Of a DNA stretch of 64,000 nucleotides, positions 20,681 through 20,852 are shown in pieces. Each line of letters starts with the position of its first letter. Positions within the stretch are counted from its first letter, which is position 1. The notes beneath the pieces were generated by a model, which worked only from the letters and a program-made list of their open reading frames with translations, was not told the DNA's origin and made no database searches. Both the position numbers and the translations under genes were made by a program. The stretch is from a virus (taxonomy: Duplodnaviria; Heunggongvirae; Uroviricota; Caudoviricetes): IMG/VR virus record IMGVR_UViG_3300031555_002904, one strand, 5' to 3'.

Positions 20681-20755
20681 TGGGGTGTCGTTCAAAGGTT
20701 AGGACCGCGGTCTCTAAAATCGCAGATGTCAGTTCGATTCTGACCGCCCCCGCCA
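20681..20755 (+). tRNA. tRNA-Sup(CUA), amber suppressor tRNA (Gln-like: U1, G73)
   Basis: Acceptor tggggtg/cgccccc with 6 of 7 pairs, D-stem gttc/ggac, anticodon stem gcggt/atcgc with loop ctCTAaa (anticodon at 20714-20716), T-arm gtcag/ttcgatt/ctgac, G73 and CCA. Confidence 0.7.
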
Positions 20756-20852
20756 TGGGGTGTATTCTAATGGTAAGAAAAGAGTCTCTAAAACTCCAGG
20801 AAGCACGGCTCTGACCCGTGATGTGGGGGTTCGAATCCCTCCACCCCAGCCA
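20756..20852 (+). tRNA. tRNA-Gln-derived gene with two anticodon-like arms: CUA (20788-20790) then CUG (20811-20813)
   Basis: Acceptor tggggtg/cacccca with U1-A72, G73 and CCA; D-stem ttct/agaa. It is otherwise collinear with tRNA-Gln(CUG) at 15753. A 24-nt insert adds the stem-loop agagt ctCTAaa actcc ahead of cacgg ctCTGac ccgtg. Confidence 0.5.

Follow-up and report, generated by a model that had tools for sequence, protein, structure and literature searches.

Phages that use genetic code 15, among them phAss-1, the crAss-like phages and the Lak phages, share with the phage described here a tRNA of anticodon CUA lying in a tRNA array, in-frame TAG codons read as glutamine and a reliance on the host for tRNA charging. 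The published descriptions consulted treat their tRNA-Sup(CUA) as ordinary suppressors and mention neither an extra arm nor a glutamine loop, and Borges et al. (preprint) call the charging of phage suppressor tRNAs an unanswered question. In phAss-1 (OQ749652) a tRNA-Leu(UAA) is followed by a 75-nucleotide (nt) and a 91-nt tRNA-Sup(CUA), the long one being called a suppressor by the authors without further comment. We analyzed a stretch of 64,000 nucleotides from a virus of the Caudoviricetes (IMG/VR record IMGVR_UViG_3300031555_002904), hereafter the window, in which two abutting tRNA(CUA) genes of 75 and 97 nt form the same short/long tandem in a phage unrelated to phAss-1. A BLAST comparison of this region with GenBank phages gave matches at the tRNA level only, except for phAss-1. 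The 97-nt gene (97-mer) folds with five arms: beside the arm bearing the CUA anticodon it has a second anticodon-like arm with the loop of a glutamine tRNA.

Several described RNAs resemble the 97-mer in part. The Escherichia coli amber suppressor supE, a tRNA-Gln(CUA), has in common with it U1, the pairs G2-C71 and G3-C70, G73, the anticodon CUA and glutamine as the residue assigned to UAG. However, supE is a plain class I cloverleaf, whereas the 97-mer adds a CUG loop on an extra arm and has U10 instead of G10. supE is charged less well by glutaminyl-tRNA synthetase (GlnRS), since G36 is lost in it. Class II tRNAs (Ser, Leu, Tyr and Sec) and allo-tRNAs likewise bear an extra stem-loop between the anticodon and T stems. 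Class II arms start 1-2 nt past the anticodon stem, end in 3-5-nt loops without fixed sequence and go with class II D arms, whereas the 97-mer shows a 6-nt linker, a conserved 7-nt loop of anticodon type, a small class I D loop and acceptor and T helices of the 7/5 kind. The E. coli thrS operator and the tRNA-like structure of turnip yellow mosaic virus also display hairpins that copy an anticodon loop and are recognized by the cognate synthetase according to tRNA identity rules. Yet these mimics lie in an mRNA or a viral genome and serve regulation or 3'-end charging, whereas the mimic of the 97-mer lies inside a decoding tRNA beside a different anticodon. The engineered pseudo-anticodon of Mukai 2020 (PMC7590224) is an amber suppressor whose variable arm mimics the cognate anticodon arm in order to recruit an anticodon-binding domain, with a modest but measurable gain. 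That system is artificial, an allo-tRNA chassis combined with a HisRS fused to an extra anticodon-binding domain, whereas the phage arm is natural and would have to act with unmodified host enzymes.

No natural tRNA that copies an anticodon on a second arm was found in the open-access papers searched, including a 2025 screen of 213 phage suppressor tRNAs, the phAss-1, theta-ribozyme and allo-tRNA papers, the Borges et al. preprint and reviews of non-canonical tRNAs and of tRNA identity. The original prediction for this locus, made from the letters of the DNA, had likewise known of no described tRNA with a dual-arm layout, and the engineered molecule is the only analogue that the literature yielded. 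A natural two-armed pseudo-anticodon tRNA therefore appears to be new, its sole precedent found being engineered, and the chance that it embodies a new principle of tRNA identity is substantial.

Between positions 4953 and 23979 on the + strand of the window, ARAGORN identified 41 tRNA genes, two of which have the anticodon CUA. These form the tandem that had been predicted, and both ARAGORN and the Rfam tRNA model RF00005 call the pair at the coordinates given by that prediction. The two genes, the parts of the 97-mer that distinguish it and the phage's own glutamine tRNAs are as follows.

20681..20755, + strand: short amber suppressor tRNA(CUA), 75 nt, encoded CCA, anticodon at 20714-20716; from ARAGORN, Rfam (47.1 bits) and the fold
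20756..20852, + strand: five-arm amber suppressor tRNA(CUA), 97 nt, encoded CCA, anticodon at 20788-20790; from ARAGORN, Rfam (54.2 bits) and the fold
20781..20797, + strand: arm 1, the putative decoding arm, AGAGU-CUCUAAA-ACUCC, with CUA at 20788-20790 and A.C as pair 27:43
20798..20803, + strand: 5' linker between the arms, AGGAAG, 6 nt, read base by base
20804..20820, + strand: arm 2, the putative glutamine pseudo-anticodon arm, CACGG-CUCUGAC-CCGUG, 5 base pairs (bp) and a 7-nt loop with CUG at 20811-20813
20821..20824, + strand: 3' linker, AUGU, of the length of a class I variable loop, read base by base
15608..15683, + strand: the phage's own tRNA-Gln(UUG), used for comparison, anticodon loop CUUUGAC
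15753..15828, + strand: the phage's own tRNA-Gln(CUG), used for comparison, anticodon loop CUCUGAC

The spacer between the genes is 0 nt, so that the 97-mer begins right behind the CCA of the 75-nt gene (75-mer). The gathering score of RF00005 is 29, and the covariance model thus accepts both genes as tRNAs. It aligns the CUA hairpin of the 97-mer as the anticodon arm and assigns 24 extra nucleotides to the variable region. The five-arm cloverleaf is also the minimum-free-energy fold of the 97-mer, with the extra arm beside the CUA arm, and ARAGORN draws the identical structure. Read base by base, the 5' portion consists of the acceptor strand UGGGGUG, UA, a D arm UUCU-AAUGGUA-AGAA and A26, and the 3' portion of a T arm GGGGG-UUCGAAU-CCCUC, the acceptor strand CACCCCA, G73 and CCA; the last U of the 3' linker could pair with A15. 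The 75-mer is a canonical cloverleaf. In both genes the anticodon loop is CUCUAAA, 7 nt long with U33, CUA at 34-36 and a purine at 37, and in-frame TAG in conserved genes creates a need for UAG read-through. By sequence criteria, both genes are amber suppressors like those described in code-15 phages.

The glutamine-type acceptor claimed for both genes was borne out. The 97-mer has U1-A72, G2-C71, G3-C70 and G73, and the 75-mer has the same last three features below a U1.C72 mismatch; both thus show the weak or open 1:72 position, G2-C71, G3-C70 and G73 expected from the identity rules of E. coli GlnRS. The same rules call for Y34-U35-G36 with A37 in the anticodon arm, and in the 97-mer YUG-A is found solely on arm 2. 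Its loop, CUCUGAC, matches at every base that of the anticodon arm in the phage's own tRNA-Gln(CUG). In silico, the 97-mer stripped of one or the other arm becomes a canonical 74-nt tRNA, namely tRNA-Gln(CUG) if arm 1 is taken away and tRNA(CUA) if arm 2 is, so the suggestion that either arm could act as the anticodon arm is formally right. When arm 1 and the linker are deleted, the product is a perfect tRNA-Gln(CUG) of 74 nt whose stem has 5 bp and whose variable loop has 4 nt. Its best match among the phage's own tRNAs, itself excluded, is tRNA-Gln(UUG) at 72%, a weakly informative value. The description of the gene as carrying a duplicated anticodon arm stood in part: a second anticodon-like arm with the tRNA-Gln(CUG) loop is present, but the two stems are unrelated in sequence and do not indicate a duplication. 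An extra stem-loop of more than 10 nt, the mark of class II, is present as well, with 27 nt between the anticodon and T stems, although the 6-nt linker, the conserved 7-nt loop and the 7-nt D loop depart from class II. ARAGORN labels the gene tRNA-Pyl, a label that follows from the CUA anticodon alone. tRNA-Pyl is marked by a 3-nt variable loop, a very small D loop and a 6-bp anticodon stem; the geometry of the 97-mer differs, and no pyl genes were present among the 40 open reading frames (ORFs) scanned in the window.

We judged the genetic code of the phage gene by gene; ORF totals over the whole window under alternative codes are uninformative. Nearly all long ORFs on the + strand stop at TAA or TGA. 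ORFs that end at TAG continue as further ORFs in the same frame and are merged by TAG read-through, for example at 59492-60754 and 60826-63351. Two genes with in-frame TAG bear on what follows.

60826..63351, + strand: endolysin-like gene, 841 codons with four in-frame TAG, the first at 62329-62331 (codon 502)
20270..20677, + strand: PD-(D/E)XK endonuclease ORF (Pfam PDDEXK_5, E 3.6e-15), ending in TGA 3 nt upstream of the first tRNA(CUA) gene

At codon 502 of the endolysin the aligned residue is glutamine in 120 of the 120 homologues retrieved, and a related 199-kb contig has CAG aligned with this TAG. The other three TAG of the gene fall at variable positions, glutamine being among the residues found there. 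The original prediction had placed a TAG-containing ORF directly upstream of the tandem, and the endonuclease ORF indeed has three in-frame TAG (20276-20278, 20285-20287 and 20405-20407). Compared with two paralogues these lie at variable positions and are thus uninformative about the amino acid. Because of the read-through ORFs, the invariant glutamine at codon 502 and the CAG in the relative, TAG is taken from sequence to be a sense codon in this phage, with glutamine as its best-supported meaning, in agreement with the published picture of TAG-recoded phages (phAss-1 paper; Borges et al. preprint). The domains of the endolysin are most like those of Faecalibacterium, Oscillospiraceae and Blautia phages, and from this similarity the host is probably a gut Clostridium.

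The exact 39-nt core comprising the two arms had no match in viral contigs, and degenerate patterns were used instead. Counts from the collection scans refer to the matches listed and to unique sequences, not to independent lineages, and members were identified by means of ARAGORN, by which some of them were missed or mislabelled. In viral, metagenome and genome collections, pattern scans gave at least 14 further distinct members with the AGGAAG linker. The pattern itself contained this linker, so finding it conserved does not count as independent evidence. In bacterial genomes the scans for the family returned mainly chance matches, together with a few phage-like fragments in metagenome-assembled genomes (MAGs) of Bacillota/Lachnospiraceae.

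We tested the five-arm structure on an alignment (A2) of 14 of the 15 distinct sequences. Standard pairs occupy 97.5% of the cells, and changes on both sides occur at 18 of the 26 pairs; this level of covariation and pairing was reached by none of 500 shuffles, and slid controls fell to about 50% paired. In arm 2 all five pairs covary and pairing is 100%, and in arm 1 covariation was found at four of five pairs. The exception to regular pairing is 27:43 (alignment columns 29 and 45, window positions 20781 and 20797), which is never Watson-Crick in the 14 relatives, being G.U in seven and A.C in seven, which leaves the decoding stem with just four regular pairs. The stems of arm 2 are diverse (CACGG/CCGUG, CUACC/GGUAG, GGCAC/GUGUC and CUAGU/GCUAG). 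Its loop in this subfamily reads C-U-[C/U]-U-G-A-[A/C], varying only between CUG and UUG and between A and C at position 38; CUG and UUG, the sole triplets in this loop, are both glutamine anticodons. The D arm is invariant, and the 3' linker measures 4-5 nt. Because both arms covary, and because the motif counts given below lie far above shuffled expectation, both arms are, on this comparative evidence, maintained as helices and are not a product of chance.

For the wider family we scanned viral contigs with the pattern TCTCTAAAAN{20,45}GGTTCRANTCC, which fixes the CUA loop and the T loop with a long gap between them and leaves the motif of the extra arm unspecified, and passed the hits to ARAGORN. 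At least 74 unique tRNA(CUA) of 84 nt or more were obtained, and they are of two kinds. Members of the first kind combine a D arm like that of tRNA-Ser or tRNA-Leu with a variable arm of no special character. Those of the second have a small D arm of class I type and an extra hairpin, with loops such as CUCUGAA, UUCUGAG, CUUUGAA, UUCUGAA, CUCUGAC, UUUUGAU and UUUUGAG; these 7-mers equal anticodon loops of genuine tRNA-Gln genes from the same loci. In 47 of the 74 listed sequences the extra region contains the motif U[CU]UGA, against 2.5 expected from shuffles, and the distribution of this motif follows the D arm, with 44 of 51 class I-like but only 3 of 23 Ser/Leu-like members carrying it. The tryptophan motif is present in none of the 74. 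The extra loop is kept across tRNA(CUA) that have quite different acceptor and D arms. With its CUA decoding arm and the CUCUGAC extra loop, the 97-mer has both features of this proposed pseudo-anticodon family.

Should the extra loop copy the cognate anticodon, CCA would be expected there in opal suppressors inserting tryptophan, and we tested this by a scan for long tRNA(UCA). UCCAA lies in the extra region of nine of the 14 unique sequences listed (0.16 expected), and the glutamine motif is absent from all 14. The loop is mostly GUCCAAA and once CUCCAAA (locus L221), the typical anticodon loop of tRNA-Trp, closed by up to 7 bp. These tRNAs come from loci L144, L166, L221, L224, L233, L239, L243 and L251, and most of them have the tryptophan-type A1-U72 and G73; selenocysteine-like tRNA(UCA) of the same set are without UCCAA. 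A third case is tRNA(UAU), which reads the isoleucine codon AUA. Long genes of this type (88-99 nt; loci L397-L516, for example L399, L402 and L494) gave 54 unique sequences listed, and AGAU was found in the extra region of 44 against 4.5 expected. Their extra loop has 7 nt, typically CAGAUUA closed by 3-5 bp, and contains the canonical isoleucine anticodon GAU. In the CUA, UCA and UAU tRNAs alike, the decoding anticodon is one base off the canonical one and the canonical triplet stands on the extra arm. The comparison of these sequences indicates that the two-arm layout is a widespread trait of a family of phage tRNAs and that the extra loop is under isotype-specific constraint. The scans also brought up tRNAs with a class II (Ser-like) body and a long arm but the asparagine anticodon GUU at loci L034, L058, L138 and L188; L138 has long tRNA(CAU) genes as well, one of them with CCAUAA in its extra arm.

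From these observations we favor, with moderate confidence, the reading that the CUA arm decodes UAG and that the extra arm is a pseudo-anticodon restoring recognition by a glutamine-charging enzyme that reads the anticodon. Both suppressors would let a TAG-recoded jumbo phage with a code of the code 15 type read UAG as glutamine. Two promoter-like sites flank the region.

19978..20006, + strand: predicted sigma-70-type promoter-like site, TTGACA-17-TATAAT with TG, 12/12 consensus matches, upstream of the endonuclease ORF and both suppressors
20864..20892, + strand: promoter-like site, TTGATT-17-TATAAT with TG, 3' of the tRNA pair and before the tRNA-Leu(UAA) at 21033

The pair would most likely be co-transcribed with the TAG-containing endonuclease gene, and because the genes abut, one RNase P cut could free both the CCA end of the 75-mer and the 5' end of the 97-mer. 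Arm 1 would then pair with UAG on the ribosome, while arm 2 would present from the variable region a faithful copy of the tRNA-Gln anticodon loop (Y-U-YUG-A-N) and so give back the identity element lost when G36 became A. GlnRS might read this loop, or else a non-discriminating GluRS acting ahead of GatCAB. Two routes to arm 2 can be envisaged: the arm may act as a flexible tether, or the tRNA may adopt a conformer in which arm 2 is stacked on the D stem and arm 1 is looped out. The second route fits the perfect tRNA-Gln(CUG) left by deletion of arm 1, the weak pair 27:43 and the 4-5-nt 3' linkers of the subfamily; it fits the wider family less well, with its closures of 2-3 bp and 3' linkers of up to 6-8 nt. 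For GlnRS, TrpRS and IleRS the anticodon is a major identity element (PMC9976931), and since these enzymes rely on it heavily, an anticodon changed to CUA, UCA or UAU is expected to weaken recognition. A pseudo-anticodon engineered into a variable arm can raise aminoacylation (PMC7590224), and recognition of arm 2 is physically plausible because the engineered arm improved the charging of an amber suppressor by a HisRS with an extra anticodon-binding domain. More generally, we see an even chance that phages have a way to uncouple decoding from amino acid identity, the anticodon being changed (CUG to CUA, CCA to UCA, GAU to UAU) and the original kept on a second arm for GlnRS, TrpRS or IleRS, possibly through an arm-swap conformer on the D stem.

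A number of observations speak against the pseudo-anticodon reading. Class I synthetases, to which GlnRS, TrpRS and IleRS belong, bind their tRNAs with the variable region toward solvent, so that, barring an arm swap or a tether, a variable arm is not obviously within reach of the anticodon-binding domain. G10 is an identity element of E. coli GlnRS, and U10 stands in its place in the 97-mer and in 14 of 14 relatives. In the wider family many members have only 2-3 bp closing the extra loop, the linkers vary (5' from 1 to 6 nt, 3' from 4 to 8 nt), and in one subfamily an alternative hairpin would bury CUG. The isoleucine-type loops, YAGAUUA, have only GAU in common with real isoleucine anticodon loops, and since positions 33 and 37 differ, this case is less clean. 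The counts overstate the number of independent events, because the sequences are related. Phage tRNA(CUA) have moreover been reported as substrates of E. coli GlnRS. Canonical short tRNA-Sup(CUA) also exist, one of them directly upstream of the 97-mer, and the extra arm is thus not strictly required. From its sequence, the 75-mer seems to compensate in a different manner, its mismatched 1:72 and G73 fitting glutamine acceptor identity. GlnRS prefers an open first pair, and a 1:72 mismatch with G73 is found also in the short suppressor tRNAs of phAss-1 and of a Bacillota MAG (L288).

Among other explanations, the plainest takes arm 2 as a long variable arm like those of class II, its glutamine-like loop being structural or a leftover, for example of an old duplication of the anticodon arm, with no role in identity. 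Rfam and ARAGORN do model arm 2 as a variable region, class II tRNAs and allo-tRNAs show long variable arms to be common and acceptable to the ribosome, and the extra arm differs widely among members in stem length and linkers. However, a leftover would decay, whereas this loop has been kept while its stems changed by compensation and while acceptor and D arms diverged, switching only between the two glutamine anticodons. Moreover, the UCA and UAU tRNAs have in this place the Trp and Ile triplets that match them, the glutamine and tryptophan motifs never cross over, and only 3 of the 23 listed Ser/Leu-like long tRNA(CUA) have the motif, all of which leaves this explanation unlikely. We also judge it rather unlikely that arm 2 is the working anticodon arm, either of a tRNA-Gln(CUG) interrupted between the D and anticodon arms by a CUA hairpin or of a two-state tRNA decoding both CAG and UAG. 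The perfect 74-nt tRNA-Gln(CUG) obtained by removing arm 1 and the linker, the subfamily's 3' linker of class I length and a pair 27:43 that is always A.C or G.U suit such a molecule, and another tRNA of the array (16878-17016) has an insertion at the same junction of D and anticodon arms. But the 2-3 bp and 6-8-nt 3' linkers frequent in the wider family would make a poor anticodon arm, the phage already has tRNA-Gln(CUG) and tRNA-Gln(UUG), the family is tied to altered anticodons (CUA, UCA and UAU) at the standard anticodon position, and acceptance by the ribosome of a tRNA with a hairpin at position 26 is without precedent.

The copied loop, with U33 and A37, could be bound by any reader of the tRNA-Gln anticodon loop, and arm 2 might accordingly serve another partner, as a decoy for anticodon nucleases or modification enzymes or as a T-box ligand raising host synthetase expression. 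The likely hosts are Clostridia, in which T-box control is common. Against this, a decoy or T-box ligand need not reside on a suppressor tRNA of matching identity, and a variable arm would not reproduce the anticodon-to-elbow distance, which T-box stem I gauges; we regard a partner of this sort as improbable. The original prediction had also considered a mini-intron, that is, one hairpin as a processed insert whose removal leaves an ordinary 74-nt tRNA. Either deletion does leave a canonical tRNA, and the gene at 16878-17016 has a 51-nt insert with a flanking CCGGA repeat. This idea found no support: the 23-24-nt insert is a plain hairpin, too short for a group I intron, the Rfam scans matched no intron family, there is no bulge-helix-bulge, and compensatory changes keep both helices. 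Both hairpins also conserve sequences of the anticodon-loop kind, for which a spacer due for excision would have no use, and to our knowledge bacteria have no splicing endonuclease. An intron or processed insert is accordingly very improbable. Hardly to be expected either is charging by seryl-tRNA synthetase (SerRS), as for allo-tRNAs, with UAG meaning serine. G73 and a long extra arm would suit that enzyme, SerRS recognizes the arm whatever its sequence, and serine is the residue that allo-tRNA(CUA) variants insert. Yet TAG is aligned with an invariant glutamine, the D arm is class I-like, the 6-nt 5' linker and the 7-nt loop are unlike those of tRNA-Ser, and a recognition independent of sequence cannot account for a conserved loop.

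If the pseudo-anticodon reading is right, a conserved arm matched to the isotype would give a concrete answer to how suppressors are charged by host enzymes that read the anticodon. It would constitute a new kind of identity element, an anticodon copy placed outside the anticodon arm, and would explain that the phage reassignments reported so far are only those of TAG to mean glutamine and of TGA to mean tryptophan. It would also supply a natural blueprint for orthogonal or highly efficient suppressor tRNAs in genetic code expansion, a field in which this idea has so far been realized by engineering alone. For annotation, the 85-100-nt tRNAs of this family are mislabelled by standard tools (as Pyl, as undetermined or with four-base anticodons) or missed.

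Concerning the genomic surroundings, Rfam scans found no theta ribozyme or other processing element adjoining the tRNA pair. Three PDDEXK_5 paralogues are spread over the tRNA array on the + strand (9595-10008, 17352-17759 and 20270-20677), a scatter resembling that of homing endonucleases, and in-frame TAG is present only in the copy beside the suppressor tRNAs. The array also contains a full-length ROOL RNA (16280-16871, +; Rfam RF03087, 312.6 bits). Directly behind it lies the tRNA-Leu(UAA)-like gene at 16878-17016 (+), which scores 33.3 bits in Rfam and is missed by ARAGORN. Its insert of about 51 nt sits at the junction of the D and anticodon arms, with the CCGGA repeat at both ends, and an ordinary tRNA-Leu(UAA) is also present, at 21033. 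Between two tRNA-Lys genes there is a partial match to OLE RNA (22527-22610, +; RF01071, 53.5 bits with the threshold at 50, covering model positions 439-592).

No aminoacyl-tRNA synthetase or GatCAB gene was found among the 40 ORFs scanned in the window. About 26 kb from the suppressors, an ORF at about 47371-47889 (+) is YqeY-like (PF09424, E 2e-7), a domain related to the tRNA-Gln-binding tail of GatB. It had no homologue in 3.2 Mb of loci, most of them around other suppressor tRNAs, and no sequence match in PDB. For these reasons we draw no link to suppressor charging, which is conceivable but unsupported. Genes for tRNA repair or processing are found on the + strand at 38977-39786, 41652-42554, 43156-44574 and 40627-41547, encoding a Thg1-like guanylyltransferase, an RNase T-like exonuclease and an RNA-ligase OB-fold protein, with a sigma-70 family factor among them. 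A cluster for the salvage or turnover of nicotinamide adenine dinucleotide (NAD) at 45726-54063 (+) comprises isochorismatase/nicotinamidase-like, Sir2, NAMPT-like, NAD synthase, NADAR and cytidylyltransferase-like ORFs, and a further ORF in it was assigned by inspection only as like phosphoribosyl pyrophosphate synthetase. Finally, the + strand encodes an 826-amino-acid protein with the shoulder and repeat domains of the major vault protein (30777-33257) and a DUF2828/DUF7788 protein (26886-28445).

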